A stretch of DNA of 64,000 nt from an uncultured bacterium (GCA_943788175.1 CALSPG010000001.1:351775-415774); one strand, 5' to 3'; counted from the first letter of the stretch, positions 1 through 9,108 are shown. Program-made: numbers and translations. The notes: generated from the letters alone by a model not told the origin.

Positions 1-65
1 TCACCGATTTTTATGCCATCGACACTCAAGTCGTCGCCATAGCCATTTATTAATACCTCTGCCAT
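1..65 (-). CDS. Hypothetical protein, 5' part only (runs off window edge)
   Basis: ATG at 65 preceded by AGAGAG; open frame MAEVLINGYGDDLSVDGIKIG to the window edge. Confidence 0.5.
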   Translation of the reverse strand, partial: MAEVLINGYGDDLSVDGIKIG

Positions 66-114
66 AAAAACTCTCTATTTTTTGTGATTTATAAAAAAAG
101 AATCAATTAAAGGT

Positions 115-984
115 TTATTCCTCTTCAATCGAGCTGTCGAGATTATCAACAGGTACTACATTACCACTATTCTCTTGACGGTAAGCCGCATAACCAAGGG
201 TACCGACGATAATGAATAAAACCCAAAATGTAGCATAACTATATTCACTGCCAGAAAATTTTATGAGATCGGTAAACCTGCCAATAAGTAATGAAATGCG
301 ACCCATAACGGCAAAACCGAACGAGGCGCCAAAACTTATCATTAAGAAATAAATACCTATTTTTGAAGCTTTTCCTAGTAGGCCCTTATGCTCCTTTGAA
401 AAATAAAAATATAGAAGTCCGCATATCGTACCGATAAAAATAATTATATTATTAAATATTGATGGAGATGAGAGGCTAAAAACGGGCAAACTAAAGTCAA
501 GAAGATTAACAGCCGTGCCTTTAATTTGACCAAGAACATTTGAATTCAGATAACCATATGCTTTCAGCCCAGCAGCCATTCCAACAACATATGCGATACC
601 CCAGCGAGCCATCCAACTAAAACTAGGAATAAGACTAAGCAACATCATCACACCCAATGCTAAGGGTATTAAATAAGTTAAATGTTGGTCGTGCCCTTTA
701 TCAATACCACCTGCTGGAAAAATTGAACTGGAGAAAAAACTAAGTATATTATAGATAGTATACATAATAGTATCTGGGTCATAATGCTTGGCTGGAAAAA
801 GACGACCAAATAAATTTGGCTGCAGTTGAGTCCAAAATCCAAGAGACAAAAGATATCCAGCTGAAACACCTACAAAAAGATGTTCAGATGCCTTATAGAA
901 TGGGTTATCTTTATAAAGGTAAGAAAAGATGCCAATCGTTAAAAACGTGGCAACCCAAGCACCTAATATAGTCGAAAATTCCAT
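115..984 (-). CDS. Polytopic membrane protein of the GlmL/DUF6754 operon
   Basis: 289 aa, about 7 hydrophobic segments; motifs FSYLYKDNP, EHLFVGVSAGY, FLMISFGASFG..VMGRISLLIGR. Confidence 0.8.
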   Translation of the reverse strand: MEFSTILGAWVATFLTIGIFSYLYKDNPFYKASEHLFVGVSAGYLLSLGFWTQLQPNLFGRLFPAKHYDPDTIMYTIYNILSFFSSSIFPAGGIDKGHDQHLTYLIPLALGVMMLLSLIPSFSWMARWGIAYVVGMAAGLKAYGYLNSNVLGQIKGTAVNLLDFSLPVFSLSSPSIFNNIIIFIGTICGLLYFYFSKEHKGLLGKASKIGIYFLMISFGASFGFAVMGRISLLIGRFTDLIKFSGSEYSYATFWVLFIIVGTLGYAAYRQENSGNVVPVDNLDSSIEEE

Positions 985-993
985 TTTTATTCC

Positions 994-1848
994 TTAATAC
1001 TTTCTTGATCTTTTTCGTTCTATAAAAAAAGAAATATTACCAAGAACAATAAATAGCACGATTACTAAGTGAGCTACTGATTGCGCATCCATCCCGCTTG
1101 TGGCAGAACCTTTTTGATTTATTAATGATTCATATTCAGCGGCGCCAGGCATTCCAGCAAGCACACCAATCATTTGACCCGATTGGACATAAGGCATAAC
1201 CTCATTTACCTGGATAGATGTTACTCCAGAACTCATTGGTACTCCAGTAGGGTCTGCGGCATACTGCACCCACTCGATTGTACCTGGATAGCCAGCTGAA
1301 GCACTAAACAAAAAGTCGAAATCTTTAAAATTAGTTATTCCATCCATCATAGGAATGTCGTCGACCTTTGTTTGCTTTGCGTCAACAGAAAATAGTTTTC
1401 TAATATTACTAACAATCCCTTTAACCACTGCCTCCCCGCCAGGTCTATAACCAAGTAAAACATAATCTTCACCGTATGTTTTATTAAACTCGCCTTCTGC
1501 AACCTGTTTTAAAGCATCTTGAGCCATAAACTGTCCATCAGGCCATAGACAGGTAACATAAACCTTTTGATCATTTCTAAATAAATGTCTCATGATACTA
1601 ATAGTCATAGGATGATTTTCAGGCTTTGTACTGGGACTATATTCAATAGAAAGCAAAACATTTGACCCCTTAGGAAGCGCTTCTATAGCATCGTAGACAC
1701 TTTTTGAAGTATCAGTTGCTCGAATTGGAAGTCCAATTGGCACAAGCAGAGGGATGATTACAACGACAGCAATAACAATAAATATCCACCTTCTATCGAC
1801 ACTGCCAATTTTTAAAAAAATATCTTCTATTTTATTCAATTTACTCAC
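994..1848 (-). CDS. Membrane-anchored protein with central soluble alpha/beta domain (GlmL/DUF6754 operon)
   Basis: 284 aa, N- and C-terminal TM helices; motifs DRRWIF, YGEDYVLLGYRPG, PYVQSGQ..G...GM.GAAEYE; overlaps the upstream gene. Confidence 0.8.
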   Translation of the reverse strand: MSKLNKIEDIFLKIGSVDRRWIFIVIAVVVIIPLLVPIGLPIRATDTSKSVYDAIEALPKGSNVLLSIEYSPSTKPENHPMTISIMRHLFRNDQKVYVTCLWPDGQFMAQDALKQVAEGEFNKTYGEDYVLLGYRPGGEAVVKGIVSNIRKLFSVDAKQTKVDDIPMMDGITNFKDFDFLFSASAGYPGTIEWVQYAADPTGVPMSSGVTSIQVNEVMPYVQSGQMIGVLAGMPGAAEYESLINQKGSATSGMDAQSVAHLVIVLFIVLGNISFFIERKRSRKY

Positions 1849-2665
1849 CTATATAAGATCTTTCGATTCCTAGAATATAGCGAATTGAGGTCGCAAAAAT
1901 ACCCAAGCCAATTCCGATCATTATTGCACGAGCACCAGCAACATTAGGATAAAAATAAATCCATTCTTGTATTGACGGAAGATAAAATATGCCAGGTTGA
2001 TCTATTGGCCACCCCGTAATAACACCTCCTATAGTGACAAATGAAATACCCACAGCAACAAAAACGAAAGTGATCTTCATATCTTGTTTCAAACTATTTA
2101 CATAAACACCAAGACAAAGAACAATTAAATACATGATAAACCAGGAAGATATAACACCGCCGATAGGAACTCTACCGACCATGATAATAATACCAGAGAC
2201 TAAAAGCAGCGTCGCTTCAAAATTTCTTATTCTAAAAGCACGATACGAAGCTGAAGCAACAAAAAACGCCAACAAAGAAAACATTGTTGCTGACATTGGA
2301 GAAAAGACATAATCAAACATCCACTTGAAAAGAGTTCCATCTGAGGTAACGTGAGCACCCCATTGAGCGACAGAATCATCTACTCCCTTTACAAAAAAAC
2401 CAGCAATAATAGCAAAAACAAAACCAAAAACAGCAATAACACTATATTGCCAACCTGGTTTTTGATACAGAACTTTCTGCAATTGTAATTTAATTAAATT
2501 TAAAGCTCCAAGGATAATCGCAAAACTAGCTAGAACATCAAACCACTGAGTTGCATCATCCCCAACAAATTCTTTTACATTTGGTTGATCGATAAACCAA
2601 CCAAAAAGGGTAATTGAGCCGATTAGCGTAACGATGAATATAGGTATCTGTCTTTTCCAGAACAT
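1841..2665 (-). CDS. Polytopic membrane protein of the GlmL/DUF6754 operon
   Basis: 274 aa, hydrophobic; motifs ATMFSLLAFFVASASYRAFRIR and GARAIMIGIGLG...SIRYILGIERSY. Confidence 0.8.
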   Translation of the reverse strand: MFWKRQIPIFIVTLIGSITLFGWFIDQPNVKEFVGDDATQWFDVLASFAIILGALNLIKLQLQKVLYQKPGWQYSVIAVFGFVFAIIAGFFVKGVDDSVAQWGAHVTSDGTLFKWMFDYVFSPMSATMFSLLAFFVASASYRAFRIRNFEATLLLVSGIIIMVGRVPIGGVISSWFIMYLIVLCLGVYVNSLKQDMKITFVFVAVGISFVTIGGVITGWPIDQPGIFYLPSIQEWIYFYPNVAGARAIMIGIGLGIFATSIRYILGIERSYIGE

Positions 2666-2671
2666 AAACGG

Positions 2672-3535
2672 CTACCTTATTGTTAAATACTCTGTGATAT
2701 TAAAACCAATTCCAGTTGATTCAAAAATCGTCATCATAATCGCTGAAAGAACGATGACAGATATAACAACTAGCTTAATCATATCTTGACCCTTAACACC
2801 ACCGATAAGCTCAGGCTTTTGACTTAGATATGCACTGGCCGCAAAAAACTCTTCACCTATTAATGTATAGTCACAGGCAGTAACAAAAAAAGGTATTTGT
2901 GCTTGTGAAGCGGTACCTGCTATTTGAATGGCACCAATAGAATTTCCAGTTTCAGCTAAAATAAGAGACTCGGCATAAAACTTACCCATATACATACAGG
3001 CTGCAGGCTTTTCACGCAGCATAATACCATTAACGCCGGCAGCATAAGCAAATTGATCATCTGTCAAGTAGTGAACCATATCTTCATTAAACATATCTGG
3101 TCTACCCTCAAGCATGTAAGCTTCTCTGCAAGATTCTCTAGCAGCCTTCATCACGATAGATCTAGAAACAGGAACATTGAGACTAGTTTCATATCGAGCC
3201 GTCATCTTTGCGACATGACCAAGAACAACCACACCAGCAACTGTTTCAACTTGATCCATGTCCTGAATTCCAGGAACGTAAAGAATCGGTCTACCCATTT
3301 CAGTAGAACGACCCACAGCTTCTTCAACAGCTTTTAGGGCTGGAATTGGCCTTAGATAAAATTCTTCTCCGCGTTCAGCTGCTCTAATGAAATAAAGAAG
3401 AGTCGAACTAAGAGAAACGATAGCGAAAAGCATTACAAACCTTTCCGTAACGAAATAAGGATGTCCTAGTAGCCAATATGCTAGAAAAACAACTGTAATC
3501 GAAGCGATTACAAACCAAAATTTTCTATCCTTCAA
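2672..3535 (-). CDS. DUF6754-family membrane protein
   Basis: RPIPAL.AVEEAVGRSTEMGRP, QFAYAAG, FYAESLILAETG, QIPFFVTACDYTLIGEEFFAASAYLS motifs; TTG start. Confidence 0.75.
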   Translation of the reverse strand: MKDRKFWFVIASITVVFLAYWLLGHPYFVTERFVMLFAIVSLSSTLLYFIRAAERGEEFYLRPIPALKAVEEAVGRSTEMGRPILYVPGIQDMDQVETVAGVVVLGHVAKMTARYETSLNVPVSRSIVMKAARESCREAYMLEGRPDMFNEDMVHYLTDDQFAYAAGVNGIMLREKPAACMYMGKFYAESLILAETGNSIGAIQIAGTASQAQIPFFVTACDYTLIGEEFFAASAYLSQKPELIGGVKGQDMIKLVVISVIVLSAIMMTIFESTGIGFNITEYLTIR

Positions 3536-3558
3536 ATATTATCCTTAATTCCATCTTA

Positions 3559-3855
3559 CTAATCTAACATCTCAAGACGCTCAATTTCATCTAATAAAAT
3601 TGATAGAGAATCTTTTTTATTTAACAGTTCTGCAGCTCTGTAATAACCATCTGTCTGAACAAAACCATTAATTATTGGTCCCATAAAAACCATTAAATGA
3701 CTTCCAAGAGATGACAATGGCCGTACCATTTCTAAAAAAAATATTGATGGCGTAACGAAACCTGAACTATGAATTTTTTTTGCTAATCTATGAATGAAAT
3801 CAATATCTTGTTGAGATATTTTACCGTCAAGAATTTCTTTAGTCAAAGACATCAA
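3559..3855 (-). CDS. Small helical hypothetical protein within the GlmL operon
   Basis: 98 aa, 1 nt from the upstream stop; LAKKI....TPSIFFLEM.RPL motif. Confidence 0.7.
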   Translation of the reverse strand: MMSLTKEILDGKISQQDIDFIHRLAKKIHSSGFVTPSIFFLEMVRPLSSLGSHLMVFMGPIINGFVQTDGYYRAAELLNKKDSLSILLDEIERLEMLD

Positions 3856-3856
3856 A

Positions 3857-4984
3857 CTAATCAGTCTCTACAACTTCTAAATTAGAACGTGGAATTTCAA
3901 TCATCTTACCTTCAATATTAATAATTGCAACTCTAACCATTGTTTCAGACTCCATTTTCCTTAATTCAGACGGAAGCTCTTTTACAGACCCAATTTTACC
4001 AAAATTTGGAGATCGGATAACTCTAACTAAGCTACCTTCAGTCATACCAGACATTTTTTTTGAATTCTCATCATTATCTTTTTGGCTGCTTGCATCAGTA
4101 GGAATAATTATCTCGGGCCTTATTACACCAGCGCGTATTTGAGTAGCACCATTAATTGAGGCTAATCTGTCACTATTTTCTTTCAATAAATCAAATGTTT
4201 GCGCTCCCATTTGGATTTTGCCATAACCTTCTGTAACTATTAAAGAAGTAACTAAATCCTCAGAGCCAGTTATAGCCACACCAAGCGTGTATCCTAAAAT
4301 TTCTTCTAAGTCATAGTAATTAAAACCGCCAACAACAACACCAGCAACTTTGCATTCTAAGGCTTTTTTGTAGGCTTCTAAACTAATAAAACTACCGCCT
4401 ACAATTATCATTCCCTCATGTTCAGGAAGAATCATGTCAGCACTAATTTCAGAACTTCTATCTTCTGAAAGCATCTTGATTTTTCCTCGGCTTTCGCCTC
4501 CTATACCAAAGATACCCTGTACAAAAGAACCGTAGCTTTTTATTACCACACCTTCTTCAGTTATTACCTCATGAACAATACCTCGTATGTAAGCATCAAC
4601 TTCAACGGGAATTGGAGCTTCTCTAATCACAATTTGCCCTGTAATATTGGAAACTGACTCGACTGTGCCATCAACGGGACTATTTACACTGGACTTAAAA
4701 TATCCAAAGATGCCATTAGTTTGTGCAATCAAATCATTTTTACTTACCTTAGAACCTTCTTTTGCAATCATAACAGTTTCAACATCGGAAGCATCAATAT
4801 TCAACTGATTGGCGACGTTAACCATTTGCACATTTCCTGGCAAATCTGTTTTTGCAATAATATCTTCAGGAGCTACAGTATCTCCAACCGATGTATCAAC
4901 AGACCCCTTTAGCGGAAGCCTACGCTCTTTTAAAATTTTTGTTTTCTTTAATACCTTTAAACCTGGTGTATACGAATGAGCCAT
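3857..4984 (-). CDS. GlmL partner protein with biotinyl/lipoyl-like hybrid motifs and C-terminal KOW/SH3-like domain
   Basis: 375 aa; V.VGDTV.PEDIIA, EGSKVSKNDLIA and SPVDGTVE hybrid-like motifs; GSLVRVIRSPNFGKIGSV KOW-like motif; 1 nt after the glmL-like stop. Confidence 0.75.
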   Translation of the reverse strand: MAHSYTPGLKVLKKTKILKERRLPLKGSVDTSVGDTVAPEDIIAKTDLPGNVQMVNVANQLNIDASDVETVMIAKEGSKVSKNDLIAQTNGIFGYFKSSVNSPVDGTVESVSNITGQIVIREAPIPVEVDAYIRGIVHEVITEEGVVIKSYGSFVQGIFGIGGESRGKIKMLSEDRSSEISADMILPEHEGMIIVGGSFISLEAYKKALECKVAGVVVGGFNYYDLEEILGYTLGVAITGSEDLVTSLIVTEGYGKIQMGAQTFDLLKENSDRLASINGATQIRAGVIRPEIIIPTDASSQKDNDENSKKMSGMTEGSLVRVIRSPNFGKIGSVKELPSELRKMESETMVRVAIINIEGKMIEIPRSNLEVVETD

Positions 4985-4985
4985 A

Positions 4986-6803
4986 TTACTTACCTAATTC
5001 AGGATATTCATCAACAGCATCAGACCATTTTTTAAGATCTGAAATACGTTTTGAAGAAGACTTTTCTATCTGCAGAGGTCTACCACGACCATCAATGATA
5101 ATTCCAACCTGCCCACCAAATATTTTAGTATTTATTTGTTCTCCAGTGCCAGCGCCTACATCAACACTTTTTCCTGGAGTTAAAGTAGCTTTGACTTCTT
5201 CATAGCCCACTTTAATTCTTATTAAATCACCGAAACCAATATCAATGTTTTTCTTATCGCCATTTTTAAATTCTAAATTCACGTTAAGAATTTTTTCACT
5301 ACCGTTTACCTTGCCAACAGGTGCGATACAAGTACCAAGGCGAATTAAACAGTCTTTTTCAAAAACCTCTAGCGCAGCTATCCTAGCCTGCTCAGCAATT
5401 TCTTTATTTTCAATATTTGCCATTACGCCTAATTGAGGCATCATAAAAATTGAGTCTACAGCTAGTGAAGTAACTCCTTCAGGCAAAAAACTATCAATTA
5501 ACATTTTTGCTGACTGCTCTCTCCTAGGTGCATGAGATAAAACGCCACCAGATCCAACAATGAGATCAAGCTCCATCATATCTACAAGAGATTCACCAGA
5601 GTCGGATTGCTCAAAAGCATCTGAAATAGTTCTTTCTTTTTGAACACCTTTGAGATTTACCGCAAAAGCTTTGTGTTGTATAAACGATAATCTTAATGCT
5701 TCCCTGGCTATCGCTTGCTCAATTACAAGCTCTTCCAAACTCTGTGGAACTGTTGTTGGGCGAATCATTTTATTACCAATTCTATTGGTTAATTCTTTTT
5801 CATCGATATCAAAAGGCACCCAGCGAAGAACATTAGGCAGCGATGCTTCTGCAAGTACGTTACAAATTGAATAACTCATACCAAGATTTGCGCTGACAGT
5901 TCTATTAAACTGATTTTGAAAAACAGAAAAAATATCGGTAGTCGCCCCTCCAATATCAACGCCAACAACAGAAATATTTTCTTTTTTAGCGACCATTTCA
6001 ATTAGCGCACCTACTGCACCAGGAGTCGGCATAATCGGAGCATCTGTCCAACTCATAAGCTTCTTGTATCCAGGAGCTTGTTGCATGACATGTTCCATAA
6101 ACAAATCATGTATTTTATCTCTAGATGGCTTGAGATTTTCTTGCTCTAAAACAGGTCTAATGTTTTCTGTGACATCAAGATCTGTAAGTTTACCAAGTGT
6201 CTTTTTTATGTCAGAGGTTGCTTTTTTATTTCCAGCGTAAATAACGGGTAGCTTATAATTTTGGCCTAATCTTGGTTGTGGATTCGCAGCAGCTAATATT
6301 TCAGCTAGTTCAACCACGTGCTTTGTGGTGCCACCATCAATCCCGCCAGAAAGCAAAATCATATCGGGTCTTAATTGTCTTATTCTAGTAATCTTTTCAT
6401 GTGGTTTTCTGCCGTCATTAGCGGCAAGCACATCCATCACTATAGAACCGGCACCAAGGGCCGCCCGCTCAGCGCTTTCTCCAGTCATTGATTTAACAAC
6501 ACCTGCTACCATCATTTGAAGTCCTCCACCAGCAGAACTAGTAGATATGTAGATATCTACGCCATCATCTTTTTTCTGAGGCGTAATAATATTTTCACCG
6601 TCAAGTATTTTTCGACCTGAGAGCTCTTCAATCTCCATTGTAGCATTTAGAACGCCTCGAGTCACATCTTCAAAAGGAGCCTCAACAGTTGTAGGCGCCT
6701 CACCTCTAAAGGTTAAGCGATATTCACCATCAACAAATTCAATTAAAATTGCTTTTGTCGTTGTACTTCCGCAATCGGTAGCCAGTATAGAACGAAGTTT
6801 CAA
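4986..6803 (-). CDS. Glutamate mutase L (GlmL/MutL)-family ASKHA ATPase
   Basis: Phosphate-1 LATDCGSTTTK, SSAGGGL, ILLSGGIDGG, IYAGN, MPTPGAV, phosphate-2 VDIGGATTD, adenosine GSGGVL, C-terminal IDGRGRP. Confidence 0.85.
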   Translation of the reverse strand: MKLRSILATDCGSTTTKAILIEFVDGEYRLTFRGEAPTTVEAPFEDVTRGVLNATMEIEELSGRKILDGENIITPQKKDDGVDIYISTSSAGGGLQMMVAGVVKSMTGESAERAALGAGSIVMDVLAANDGRKPHEKITRIRQLRPDMILLSGGIDGGTTKHVVELAEILAAANPQPRLGQNYKLPVIYAGNKKATSDIKKTLGKLTDLDVTENIRPVLEQENLKPSRDKIHDLFMEHVMQQAPGYKKLMSWTDAPIMPTPGAVGALIEMVAKKENISVVGVDIGGATTDIFSVFQNQFNRTVSANLGMSYSICNVLAEASLPNVLRWVPFDIDEKELTNRIGNKMIRPTTVPQSLEELVIEQAIAREALRLSFIQHKAFAVNLKGVQKERTISDAFEQSDSGESLVDMMELDLIVGSGGVLSHAPRREQSAKMLIDSFLPEGVTSLAVDSIFMMPQLGVMANIENKEIAEQARIAALEVFEKDCLIRLGTCIAPVGKVNGSEKILNVNLEFKNGDKKNIDIGFGDLIRIKVGYEEVKATLTPGKSVDVGAGTGEQINTKIFGGQVGIIIDGRGRPLQIEKSSSKRISDLKKWSDAVDEYPELGK

Positions 6804-6838
6804 ATTAAAATTCTCTAAGTATAAACGTTAATTAATGT

Positions 6839-7657
6839 TTATTGATTAAAAACCAGGAGGTAAATATAAATCAAAGGCGATGAAAAAAGTAAGGAATCAA
6901 AGCGGTCCAGTATTCCTCCATGCCCTCTTAAGATATCTCCGGAATCTTTGACTCCAACATCGCGCTTAAGCAGCGACTCCCCAAAATCTCCTAGCTGGCC
7001 AAAAACACCAGAGATCAAACCAAAGACAATAGCATCAATTAAAGAGTATGTAGGTCCTAAAAAATCAAGCTTATATGCAATCAGAAACGTTAATATAGAA
7101 AAGATAAAACCAGAAATCGACCCTACCCAACTTTTTTTGGGACTTATTTTGGGAAGAATTTTTTTCTCACCAAATTTTGTTCCAAAAAAGAAAGCGGCTG
7201 TATCACATAGCCAGACAGACACAAACAATAAAAGCGTAACATTGGAATCAAAAATATGATCTAATTGCCGCAGGTGGATCAATGTTCCAAGCAAGGTTGG
7301 TACAAAAATAATCCCCAAAACAGTGTTTGCAATGTTTTGCAAGGGTTCCTTTTTATTGTTTATTATTTCAATGATAAAAAGACTAATTACAGTCATGCAT
7401 GCTAGGCCGAGTACTGTAATTTGATGATGCGCATAAACGCCAGAGTAAGCTAGTCCGATAAAAACAGTTATAATAAACCCAAATATACGATTTGGATAGC
7501 TCCCTTTTATTTCACACATTTTGAAAAACTCATCAAGGCCTAGCAACATAATCAACGTAGTAACGATGGCAAAAATTGGGTTCCCTACATAAAAACAGCC
7601 AACACCCAAGGGGACACCCAAGATTAAAATTAGCTTTCTACCTTTAAGTTCTTTCAT
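6839..7657 (-). CDS. cdsA: Phosphatidate cytidylyltransferase
   Basis: DTAAFFFG, ISPKKSWVG, GDFGESLLKRDVGVKDSG..LRGHGGILDRFDS signature. Confidence 0.95.
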   Translation of the reverse strand: MKELKGRKLILILGVPLGVGCFYVGNPIFAIVTTLIMLLGLDEFFKMCEIKGSYPNRIFGFIITVFIGLAYSGVYAHHQITVLGLACMTVISLFIIEIINNKKEPLQNIANTVLGIIFVPTLLGTLIHLRQLDHIFDSNVTLLLFVSVWLCDTAAFFFGTKFGEKKILPKISPKKSWVGSISGFIFSILTFLIAYKLDFLGPTYSLIDAIVFGLISGVFGQLGDFGESLLKRDVGVKDSGDILRGHGGILDRFDSLLFSSPLIYIYLLVFNQ

Positions 7658-7677
7658 ATCCTAATTTACTATAATCC

Positions 7678-8586
7678 TCAGGTTAAAATTAGATTATAAG
7701 TTCTACACCTTCCTTTGATTAAACTTACAGATACAGGCGACGTCCCAATAATCTCCCCATCAATATTTAATTCTCCTTTATCACCTGGATCGATAGAAAA
7801 CGATTTACATTGAACATATTCGCATGCATCGTGATCTACATGCGAGCCGTCAAATAGTTTGGGAAATACTGAAAATAACGTGAGACTAGATGCCTTTTTC
7901 ACAATGATTAGATCTATTAAGCCATCATCAATCATTGCATGAGGCGCCATCTTCATATCCTTGCCAACATATTTAGTATTACATGCGATAATAAAAGCGA
8001 AATCACCTTCTCTTTCAACTCCATCAATCGTTATTTTTGCAACTCTTCGCTTATTTTTAATAATTTCAAAAAATGAAGCAATGTTATAGCGCTGACCACC
8101 GAACATGCACGTAGCTTTTCCGCAAACACGGAAATATCAGTTGCCATTCCCCAGCCAATGAGGTTTAGTGAAAAGAAATCTTTTTGACCACAGACTTGCT
8201 TTCATGACGTCAATTTTTCTAGAGCTGTTCTCTCGCAATTATTTTCACAGCAGACTCTTGTTTAGTCGCTCCAACAGTCTTCATAAAAGAATTACCCGTA
8301 CCATTCGGCATTACTGATATAGGGACTCTATCCTCTGCCGACCTTGACAACATTCCGTTCAAAACCTCAAACAATGTACCGTCCCCGCCCATGGCGCAAA
8401 CGGAATCAAAATTAGTTAAATTTTCATTTTTCACTATATCTACGGCGTGACCCATTATACTCAGTTTTAATTAAAGTACTTTCTACGCTCATATCTTTTA
8501 AAGCACTACATATTAACAGTACTTATAGCATTATGAAAATTAATAGTCCCGCTTTTTGGATTAGCAATTAAAAGGACCTTGGTCAT
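7678..8586 (-). CDS. Diacylglycerol kinase-family (YegS/DagK) lipid kinase, split by several frameshifts
   Basis: Start at 8586 reads [13 protein letters not shown]; fragments carry GGDGTLFEVLNG, PNGTGNSF, NTKYVG and LNIDGE motifs in different frames. Confidence 0.85.
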
Positions 8587-9108
8587 TTTGGGCGATCCCT
8601 ATGATGCATATAAACACCGTCGCCCCATTCAATAACATCAACTTGTACTTTTGTTTTGCCTTCCTTAATAAAACCTAATTTTTTAGCAGCTCCGTAAGAG
8701 CAGTCGAGCATTCTTCCTTGGATATAAGGGCCCCCTATCGTTAATTCTTAAAATCAAAGATTTGCCATTTGCTAAATTTGTAACCCTTGCAACCGTATTC
8801 AAGGGGATTGTTTTATGGGCAGCAGTTAAGCCGTACATATCGTAAATCTCCCCATTTGCAGTAAGCTTCCCATGAAAATCCTCCGCATAAAATGAACTGA
8901 TACCAACCATCTTTTTTTTATGTTTGACATTGGTATTTACTGTTTTGGGATCAATAAAAACTGCCTTGCTTTTAGATTTGTTCTTTTTGAGCGGTGCCCG
9001 ATATTTTTTTTTAACCTTAGAAGTCGCCGTTCTTCCGTATCTGGGCGCGCTTGAGCAGGCTGCGAAGACTAAAAAAACCAGAACATAAATGAGCCTTCTA
9101 TGAATCAT
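8583..9108 (-). CDS. rlpA: Septal ring lytic transglycosylase RlpA-family lipoprotein (one frameshift near 8730)
   Basis: Lipobox FAAC; [33 protein letters not shown]; the shifted frame continues [15 protein letters not shown] to TGA at 8583, overlapping the next ATG. Confidence 0.88.

Follow-up and report, generated by a model that had tools for sequence, protein, structure and literature searches.

Seven consecutive genes, designated g1 to g7, encode a widespread and, as far as found, undescribed system of two modules that is new at the level of its architecture. The genes lie near one end of a 64,000-nucleotide stretch of DNA from an uncultured bacterium (GCA_943788175.1, C1:351775-415774), and this whole stretch is referred to as the window. 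One module is a soluble unit built around a MutL-family ATPase, and the other consists of four membrane proteins including a DUF6754 protein. An earlier note, made from the sequence of the window alone, had linked the ATPase to the DUF6754 membrane genes, and this link is borne out by rearranged synteny, by co-occurrence in two phyla, by genomes in which the two modules are not adjacent (5/5) and by gene fusions. We give an even chance to the reading that the system is an ATP-driven coupling of the two modules. The reading that its output is transport or extraction across the inner membrane, by a new kind of primary transporter or extractor, is more tentative and is considered possible and somewhat doubtful.

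The host genome comprises 2.27 Mb on 12 contigs and is 92% complete. It belongs to Marinimicrobia (Fidelibacterota) according to the names on near-identical proteins and loci. All seven genes are located on the minus strand. The g1 gene (4986..6803) encodes a 605-residue ASKHA (actin-fold) ATPase of the MutL family with an extra C-terminal domain of about 135 residues. The g2 gene (3857..4984) encodes a soluble partner of 375 residues, and the g3 gene (3559..3855) encodes a helical protein of 98 residues with a conserved hydrophobic hairpin core. The g4 gene (2672..3535) encodes the DUF6754 membrane protein of 287 residues. The g5 (1841..2665) and g7 (115..984) genes encode polytopic membrane proteins of 274 and 289 residues, respectively, without a described family. 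The g6 gene (994..1848) encodes a protein of 284 residues with a transmembrane helix at both ends and a soluble domain of about 200 residues between them. The earlier note had described seven co-directional, intact genes with gaps of -8 to 23 nucleotides, and the open reading frames and gaps (1, 1, 23, 6, -8, and 9 nucleotides from g1 to g7) match this exactly. Its sketch of protein topology also agrees with the hydropathy scan, in which g1, g2, and g3 show no transmembrane-like segment, g5 and g7 are polytopic, and g6 has its two terminal helices.

Few of these proteins match described families. The g2 protein has a Pfam match to RnfC_N only, which is below the threshold, and no NCBIfam family above the threshold. 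The g3, g5, and g7 proteins have no Pfam match, g6 has a single one below the threshold, and none of the four is above the threshold in NCBIfam. No ABC_tran or permease family was found in the seven proteins at E-values up to 0.1 in Pfam and NCBIfam, in agreement with the earlier reading that ATP-binding cassette (ABC) and phosphotransferase system (PTS) motifs are absent from the operon. Public records name the homologues 'hypothetical protein', 'glutamate mutase L', or 'uncharacterized protein (TIGR01319 family)'. The literature search, which covered papers outside their supplements, found no paper that names DUF6754 or the accession strings PF13941 and PF20539, and broader searches found nothing on this operon. 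A known anti-phage defence system was also considered and rejected, as the seven proteins matched none of the PADLOC defence models (0 families at E-values up to 0.01).

Linkage of the two modules across phyla

The DUF6754 representative search returned 2111 clusters at 50% identity. A g4 relative is encoded in 590 of the 600 pattern matches listed, which come from species-representative genomes, so at least 590 genomes encode one. Locus counts given out of 80 refer to the best 80 of at least 600 stretches from a scan with one genome per species, and several of these loci end at contig boundaries. The main lineages among the 80 loci are Marinimicrobia, Zixibacteria, WOR-3, Eisenbacteria, Fermentibacteria/Aegiribacteria, Ignavibacteria, Riflebacteria, and Planctomycetota. 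Single records are labelled Lentisphaeria, Stahlbacteria, Deltaproteobacteria, and Bacillota.

The g4, g5, g6, and g7 genes are present in 80, 76, 74, and 70 of the 80 loci, respectively, and their order is constant. The same locus carries g1 in 41, g2 in 42, and g3 in 38 cases. Gene orders vary across more than ten phyla, and the position of g1-g2 gives at least four arrangements. Marinimicrobia exhibit the arrangement g1-g2-g3-g4..7. Phycisphaerales, Fermentibacteria, and Aegiribacteria exhibit g3-g1-g2-g4..7. Riflebacteria exhibit g4..7-g3-g1-g2, where g1-g2 is found behind g7. Ignavibacteria and some Zixibacteria exhibit g1 and g2 divergent from g4. The g3 gene is located beside g4 in Marinimicrobia and before g1 in Planctomycetota and Fermentibacteria. 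The persistence of the linkage despite rearrangement argues for a functional tie between the modules. Absence of synteny in other genomes had been named in advance as evidence against the system, and the linkage was instead found to recur across phyla in rearranged form.

Where the locus lacks an adjacent g1, exactly one g1 is found elsewhere in the genome (5/5 genomes, 63-66% identical). Two or three tandem g4-g7 sets are found in 15 of the 80 loci, including those of Zixibacteria and Ignavibacteria, together with at most one g1-g2 pair. The genome of locus L079 has three membrane sets and one g2, and the Zixibacteria genome of locus L061 has one g1. Some Planctomycetota have two to three MutL genes and two DUF6754 genes.

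The co-occurrence of MutL and DUF6754 was counted in two phyla, and the pattern is seen in both. The counts are descriptive; related genomes are not independent. In the window's phylum, 81 of the 121 genomes have both genes, one has MutL only (G105, 87% complete), none has DUF6754 only, and 39 have neither (totals of 81/121 for DUF6754 and 82/121 for MutL above the cut-off). Both genes are missing from five families (f14 0/4, f16 0/2, f19 0/22, f21 0/5, and f23 0/1), and the MutL matches in lacking families are weak (19-25 bits, frames of about 720 residues). Genomes of about 1 Mb kept the operon in all six sampled cases. Among the 101 Planctomycetota genomes, 26 have both genes, two have DUF6754 only, one has MutL only (partial, E 3e-29), and 72 have neither, with DUF6754 counted in 28 genomes and MutL at E-values up to 1e-20 in 27 genomes.

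Gene fusions were identified within and between the modules. A 1006-residue open reading frame in G115 carries g1 at residues 8-599 and g2 at residues 630-1002. Database proteins longer than 658 residues that match g2 have the g1-g2 architecture in 63 of 64 cases, including a distant family with Cloacimonadales names that is 24-31% identical to g2. These fusions indicate that g1 and g2 form one functional unit. The remaining one of the 64 longer g2 homologues (P0323, 707 residues) carries g2 followed by DUF6754. The eight longer g7 homologues consist of one g6-g7 fusion (P0279) and seven proteins with an insert of about 250-350 residues. The single g2-g4 and g6-g7 fusions point to probable contacts between the fused partners.

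Two other proteins without a Pfam family were observed in some loci. In 8 of the 80 loci, from several phyla (L063 5677-6159, L075 934-1437, L068 3-440, and five more loci), g3 is preceded by a protein of about 145-167 residues that has two transmembrane helices and a soluble tail; this protein may be an optional eighth component. A protein of about 250 residues with an N-terminal signal-like helix and a C-terminal transmembrane anchor lies between g1 and g2 in Ignavibacteria-like and Zixibacteria loci (L079 3036-3791, L081 3933-4694, and L067 6457-7221).

Components of the ATPase unit and the membrane module

The g1 protein matches Pfam MutL (PF13941) over residues 6-470 with an E-value of 3.1e-123 and 412.3 bits (cut-off 27). 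It falls below the cut-offs of the NCBIfam GlmL equivalog NF040745 (219.1 bits, cut-off 475), of Or-4 (198.9 bits, cut-off 600), and of TIGR01319 (151.6 bits, cut-off 204.05). The description of g1 as GlmL-type in the earlier note therefore holds at the level of Pfam MutL but not at the level of the NCBIfam GlmL families, and the protein also carries about 135 extra C-terminal residues. The intact ASKHA ATPase motifs that the note had read in the 605-residue protein, those for phosphate and adenosine, are present and are invariant in 22 orthologues. The alignments (A2-A8) consist of 22-37 hand-picked full-length orthologues out of 31-91 listed, and the lists exclude open reading frames whose length fell beyond set limits. 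The g1 alignment (A7) has a mean column identity of 68% across phyla, and g1 is single-copy in the window's genome. The single g1 sequence has no match to PDB chains at E-values up to 1, the best E-value of the g1 profile is 1.5, and no MutL-family structure was found by sequence. A repurposing of GlmL is an assumption of the earlier note; the g1 proteins may instead make up the larger branch of the family.

The relation of g1 to enzymes dependent on B12 was assessed from the window's genome and from the phylum sample. Neither glmS nor glmE was found in the first 12 kb of the window or in the 12 kb that precede it, in line with the earlier observation that the window has no such genes. The sole Met_asp_mut_E-like match in the genome is methylmalonyl-CoA mutase on another contig. 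The B12-binding proteins of the genome, namely the mutase small subunit and a MetH-like frame of 1185 residues, are also encoded on other contigs. A role of g1 as a glutamate-mutase accessory gene was rejected because g1 is below the GlmL cut-off and has no glmE or glmS nearby. Methylmalonyl-CoA mutase is present in 114 of the 121 genomes, including the system-lacking families f14 (4/4), f19 (18/22), and f21 (5/5). The strict co-occurrence with a B12 mutase that had been named as counter-evidence is thus not observed, and a tie specific to methylmalonyl-CoA mutase was rejected on the same ground.

These results bear on the reading that g1 is a GlmL-type reactivase of the usual kind, which serves a soluble B12 mutase, and stands beside unrelated membrane genes by chance. 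The Pfam MutL match of g1, the split methylmalonyl-CoA mutase and MetH-like protein of the genome, and the small B12-binding protein kept in 5/5 streamlined genomes agree with it. However, g1 is under every NCBIfam GlmL-family cut-off, no mutase gene is adjacent to it in the window or in the loci examined, and the mutase is widespread in families without MutL. Moreover, MutL tracks DUF6754 in both phyla and a g2-g4 fusion is known. We regard the probability of this reading as close to negligible.

Cobamide uptake or handling is another reading, in which the GlmL-like ATPase would strip corrinoid from the DUF6754 Rossmann-like domain after import. GlmL relatives serve B12 enzymes, and CbiC was found in 0/121 genomes despite the mutase in 114. 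BtuC-type FecCD permeases were found in 6/121 genomes, all six without DUF6754, but strong FecCD matches account for only two of the six. The Fermentibacteria/Aegiribacteria operon lies between gcvT-H-PA-PB and a TonB-dependent receptor with ExbB-ExbD-TonB, and relatives of ExbB, ExbD, and TonB are found near WOR-3 loci; the neighbouring receptor is, however, of the CarboxypepD_reg/SusC-like kind. No cobalamin riboswitch or other Rfam element was found near the operon in seven loci from several phyla, and the window has no Rfam match at the gathering score. The g4 protein has neither a match to a B12-binding domain nor an invariant histidine. Family f19 has the mutase in 18/22 genomes, without DUF6754 and, with one weak exception, without FecCD, so another B12 route must exist. 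This reading is considered very improbable. As a side observation, the B12 uptake route is unaccounted for in most of the 121-genome phylum sample, because the mutase (114/121) is far more frequent than CbiC (0/121) and FecCD (6/121).

The AlphaFold model of g2 has a predicted local distance difference test (pLDDT) score of 85.7 and consists of three parts. The N-terminal part is a barrel-sandwich hybrid that matches NqrA (Z 7.6), RnfC (Z 7.5), and the lipoyl-like domains of membrane-fusion proteins. The central part is a swivelling beta/beta/alpha domain whose best match is the histidine domain of PTS Enzyme I (2wqd_A, Z 9.7, root-mean-square deviation 2.6, 101 residues). It is followed by RraA (Z 8.7), rifampin phosphotransferase (8.7), the C-domain of pyruvate kinase (8.5), aconitase X (8.3), and pyruvate phosphate dikinase (PPDK, 6.7). 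The C-terminal part is a KOW/SH3-like barrel (Z 7-8). No full-length fold match was found for the whole model, and all matches are at the domain level. The single g2 sequence matched PDB chains only with E-values above 0.2, and the ESM Atlas holds clusters of its own kind only, without stored models.

An identity of g2 as a phosphohistidine domain of the kind found in phosphoenolpyruvate (PEP) utilisers was considered and is not supported. The g2 alignment (A2) has no invariant histidine, g2 has no match to Pfam PEP-utilizers (PF00391), and hhalign of g2 against the PPDK swivel domain of the same genome gave a probability of 0.07. The lack of an invariant histidine and of profile similarity to the PPDK swivel domain makes a phosphohistidine relay unlikely. 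The first residues of g2, YTPGL, are invariant yet of low confidence in the model, which is as expected of a possible partner-binding peptide.

The g4 protein matches Pfam DUF6754 (PF20539) over residues 27-272 with an E-value of 2.8e-115 and 384.3 bits (cut-off 27). Its AlphaFold model (pLDDT 88.2) exhibits two N-terminal helices, a six-stranded alpha/beta domain at residues 63-240, and a long C-terminal helix; hydropathy likewise places a helix pair at the N-terminus and a single helix at the C-terminus. The domain is a generic Rossmann-like sandwich. The top Foldseek match is a Moco carrier protein (E 1e-3), and the VIA-wide list is flat, with LpxB (Z 10.6) followed by sirtuins, TrkA-N/RCK, and GT-B among 188 chains at Z of at least 8. 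Membership of g4 in LpxB or any other fold-matched family was not assigned because the matches are flat and generic. The single g4 sequence matched PDB chains only with E-values above 0.2. The g4 alignment of 37 sequences has 41 invariant columns that are clustered after strands. Most homologues exceed g4 in length, with FN3 repeats or PQQ-type propellers ahead of the domain. A weak g4 match beside the g1-g2 pair of locus L109 was rejected, as it fell in the FN3-like extension columns and not in DUF6754.

The other membrane proteins were compared with the same resources. A g5 paralogue in L074 has an FG-GAP insert, which is the only Pfam or NCBIfam match in the g5 orthologues of L047 and L074. 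Profiles against PDB chains reached best E-values of 0.36 for g5 and 1.2 for g6, and none was found for g7. The ESM Atlas places g7 in unnamed clusters of its own kind only, without stored models. Comparison by hhalign revealed no homology for the pairs g5/g7 and g4/g6. The membrane proteins thus show no match by sequence (Pfam, NCBIfam, and PDB profiles) to a characterised transporter, a match that the earlier note had set as evidence against the system. The placement of the extensions, the g2-g4 fusion, and the basic residues suggest that the Rossmann-like domain of g4 is cytoplasmic and that the FN3 and propeller extensions are periplasmic. The middle domain of g6 is probably periplasmic because both termini of g6 carry basic residues.

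Proposed coupling of the modules and rival readings

In the mechanism that we infer, module A would be a cytosolic ATPase unit of g1 and its obligate partner g2, aided by g3. Module B would be an inner-membrane complex of the four proteins g4, g5, g6, and g7, with the Rossmann-like domain of g4 tethered between transmembrane helices on the cytoplasmic side and the g6 domain on the periplasmic side. Binding and hydrolysis of ATP would open and close the g1 clamp, and g1-g2 would dock on the cytoplasmic domain of g4. As this domain is tied to the membrane at both ends, its movement could switch g4-g7 between two states. One ATPase unit may serve several paralogous membrane modules with differing periplasmic domains.

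The docking of g1 was modelled in a three-chain prediction of g1, g3, and g4, with g4 as the scored partner and three controls, one of which retained g3 and g4 and had g1 replaced. The prediction scored 0.40 (0.40, 0.43, and 0.38 in its runs), and the best control scored 0.00. At least 54% of contacts are shared between the runs, and the pLDDT of the partner is at least 72. In calibration, 58 of 80 solved complexes and 2 of 110 mismatched pairs attained the mark; those that did so with scores of 0.60 or below were only 7 of the 80 solved complexes and both mismatches. The prediction lends weak support to a possible contact between g1 and g4.

The operon is present in RNA libraries. Four marine metatranscriptome runs from two studies contain 37-76% of the sampled words of the operon, and RNA contigs cover 20-27 of 30 bins of window positions 1-9000, with a depth of about 0-2 over 7501-9000. 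The g7/g6/g5 junctions are bridged by an RNA contig (X1 record 2, 839-2398), the g4/g3 junction by two others (X3 record 20 and X4 record 29), and the junction of g1 with the upstream gene cdsA by a further one (X1 record 8). The promoter and terminator scan gave a site count not above that of shuffled sequence.

Several observations weigh against ATP-driven coupling of the two modules. A distance of 1.07 Mb separates cdsA-g1-g2 from g3-g4-g5-g6-g7 in G021, a complete genome. The distant g1-g2 fusion family (L096-L102) has no g4-g7 nearby in the 7/7 loci examined, and the divergent third g1-g2 pairs of Planctomycetota (L109-L112) have no membrane module nearby in 4/4; the partners of such pairs could be a clue to the role of the ATPase unit. 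The system was not found in 39/121 and 72/101 sampled genomes, and it is therefore dispensable. Each of the g2-g4 and g6-g7 fusions is represented by one record and could be a frame error. The three-chain prediction is, by the calibration of the tool, more often wrong than right unless the contact was likely beforehand. RNA contigs cannot prove a single transcript, and carry-over of DNA is possible. The neighbouring genes are mostly housekeeping genes and differ between phyla. The conservation of g1 (63-66% across phyla) seems far above what would be expected of a transporter ATPase, and no transporter is known to use an ASKHA ATPase.

If the transport reading holds, the system would be a new class of primary active transporter or extractor in which an ASKHA ATPase, instead of a P-loop, P-type, or rotary ATPase, drives a four-subunit module, and in which several substrate-specific modules would depend on one ATPase unit. 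We consider such a class possible, with the balance of probability tilted against it. Its members would occur widely across Marinimicrobia, Planctomycetota, Zixibacteria, Ignavibacteria, WOR-3, Fermentibacteria, and Riflebacteria. The leads for its cargo are a nutrient or an envelope-lipid precursor.

The genes around the operon were compared by clustering open reading frames of at least 100 residues within 6 kb. The cdsA gene (6839..7657, minus strand), which encodes CDP-diacylglycerol synthase (Pfam CTP_transf_1, E 1.1e-57), is located 35 nucleotides upstream of g1. In 18 Marinimicrobia loci it is likewise found upstream of g1, and it stays with g1-g2 in G021; it is regarded as a conserved neighbour of the system. 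In L102, the genes after the distant g1-g2 fusion are uppS, a lipoprotein gene, and cdsA. The plsX and fabH genes come after g7 in L047 (Phycisphaerales) and L050, and L047 also has fabD and fabG. The neighbours in other lineages include zwf/pgl, PPDK, an M28 peptidase, and a peptide-binding protein. This context points to housekeeping or envelope biology without a single substrate.

The lipid genes near the operon in three lineages (cdsA, uppS with cdsA in L102, and plsX/fabH) agree with a rival reading in which g1-g2 is an activase or chaperone for a membrane-bound envelope-lipid enzyme, similar to the B12-enzyme reactivases GlmL, DdrAB, and EutA. Here g1-g2 would bind the DUF6754 Rossmann-like domain and use ATP to load, exchange, or release a cofactor or lipid intermediate, with the g4-g7 complex as the enzyme or the handler of lipids. 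The DdrA reactivase has an ASKHA domain and a swivel domain and binds a Rossmann-like subunit. In the present system, g1 belongs to the MutL family, g2 provides a swivelling beta/beta/alpha domain, the 41 invariant columns of the g4 soluble domain resemble the conservation of an active site, and a single ATPase unit for several modules suits a shared chaperone. However, no cofactor-binding motif was identified, and the fold matches of g4 are flat and generic. The neighbours in other phyla are genes for glycine cleavage, a TonB receptor with ExbBD-TonB, zwf/pgl, and PPDK. The variable periplasmic FN3 and propeller domains would be unexpected of a lipid-synthesis enzyme, and MlaE (54/121 genomes) is not complementary to the system. 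This activase reading is judged to be rather unlikely.

Replacement of the Mla lipid transporter by the system was rejected separately, as the distribution of MlaE shows no complementary pattern. Genes like LptF/G and LolCE are present in the window's genome.

Another rival reading is that of a membrane-anchored structural, positioning, or signalling machine, in which g1 would be an actin-like switch or polymer on the cytoplasmic face. It would resemble PilM with PilN/O/C, FtsA, or MreB, and g4-g7 would link it to the periplasm through the FN3, propeller, and FG-GAP domains. Very high conservation is typical of cytoskeletal proteins, and g1 combines an actin fold with the high column identity across phyla given above. 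The bitopic and tethered partners bear periplasmic domains, and the system lies among housekeeping and envelope genes. Against this, a cytoskeletal anchor would not usually come with two to three tandem paralogous modules for each ATPase, and whole families lack the system. The MutL family also groups with non-polymerising enzymes, namely hydantoinase and reactivases. In a published source, glutamate mutase is listed among the non-polymer members (PMC5597319). We regard this structural reading as improbable, and ATP-driven coupling of the two modules is retained as the preferred reading.

Surroundings, significance, and relation to known systems

Other features were observed around the operon. 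Beyond the start of the window, 49 nucleotides after g7, there are two class-III aminotransferase genes with an aldehyde dehydrogenase gene between them, all in the same direction, and a TP_methylase-family gene, tmk, and an S41 protease are located further downstream. The trio of aminotransferase, aldehyde dehydrogenase, and aminotransferase (L003 7835-12065) is found in 13 of the 80 loci, nearly all of them from Marinimicrobia, and an RNA contig spans g7 and crosses the window start toward the trio.

The YegS/DAGK lipid kinase gene (window 7678-8455, minus strand) is split into a 142-residue YegS_C frame and a 78-residue DAGK_cat frame. The claim of the earlier note that many neighbours are broken was checked in part and holds for this gene. 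Single bases at window positions 8101, 8104, and 8726 are absent from a related RNA contig (X4), so the breaks may be indel errors of the assembly and not real pseudogenes. Outside the window, a second LptF/LptG-like frame (C7:405547-406836) matches the whole profile (E 5e-70) and contains 13 stop codons. It is a further heavily broken gene of the same genome, which agrees with the remark of the earlier note on damaged frames. A 369-nucleotide match to bacterial small subunit ribosomal RNA (L037 3638-4006, minus strand, model positions 39-400) lies about 5.5 kb from a DUF6754 module on a WOR-3 chromosome; it is not cut by a contig end and resembles an isolated piece of 16S.

About two thirds of the sampled Marinimicrobia and a quarter of the sampled Planctomycetota carry the system, and three of its four membrane proteins (g5, g6, and g7) have no Pfam family. 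If the ATPase powers the membrane module, the system would represent a new energy-coupling principle for membrane biology and would explain a conserved, abundant operon in major uncultured lineages of ocean and sediment. Even with another function, such as that of an activase or an envelope machine, the MutL/GlmL family would be redefined. The annotation 'glutamate mutase L' is misleading because a large branch of the family is tied to a membrane complex and not to glutamate mutase. Cultured Planctomycetota and Ignavibacteria are likely carriers, and the question is directly testable in them.

The system resembles several known systems in part. The central domain of g2 finds its closest structural counterpart in the swivel domains of PEP-utilising enzymes (PTS Enzyme I and PPDK), from which g2 differs in the missing invariant histidine, Pfam match, and profile similarity described above. 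The type IV pilus and type II secretion platforms (PilM/N/O/C and GspL) likewise combine an actin-fold cytoplasmic protein with bitopic and polytopic inner-membrane proteins that extend into the periplasm. However, the present proteins have no Pfam match to PilM, PilN, PilO, PilC, or GspL, the parts of the loci that were examined revealed no gene for a pilin, a secretin, or a hexameric ATPase, and the MutL branch is a different ASKHA family.

The DdrAB and EutA reactivases may share with the system the combination of an actin-fold ATPase, a swivel domain (here in g2), and a Rossmann-like partner (here g4). The reactivases act on a soluble radical enzyme, whereas the partner here is a membrane complex, with no B12 enzyme or cobalamin riboswitch near the operon. 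The swivel domain here is on a separate or fused protein that also bears the barrel-sandwich and KOW domains. The fold-search lists of g2 and g4 contain no reactivase chain, and g1, g2, and g4 each contribute one of the three fold types.

GlmL/MutL (PF13941; NF040745) shares the Pfam family over residues 6-470 of g1 with intact ASKHA motifs. Unlike GlmL, g1 has its additional C-terminal residues and in no case here stands next to glmS/glmE. It occurs with g2 as a pair or a fusion, and its distribution follows that of DUF6754. The ABC and energy-coupling factor (ECF) transporters with a shared ATPase have a P-loop ABC domain, whereas the system has an actin-fold ATPase and no transporter family match by sequence. 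As in those transporters, one cytosolic ATPase unit is found with two to three paralogous membrane modules, and polytopic subunits are combined with a subunit whose domain is probably periplasmic.

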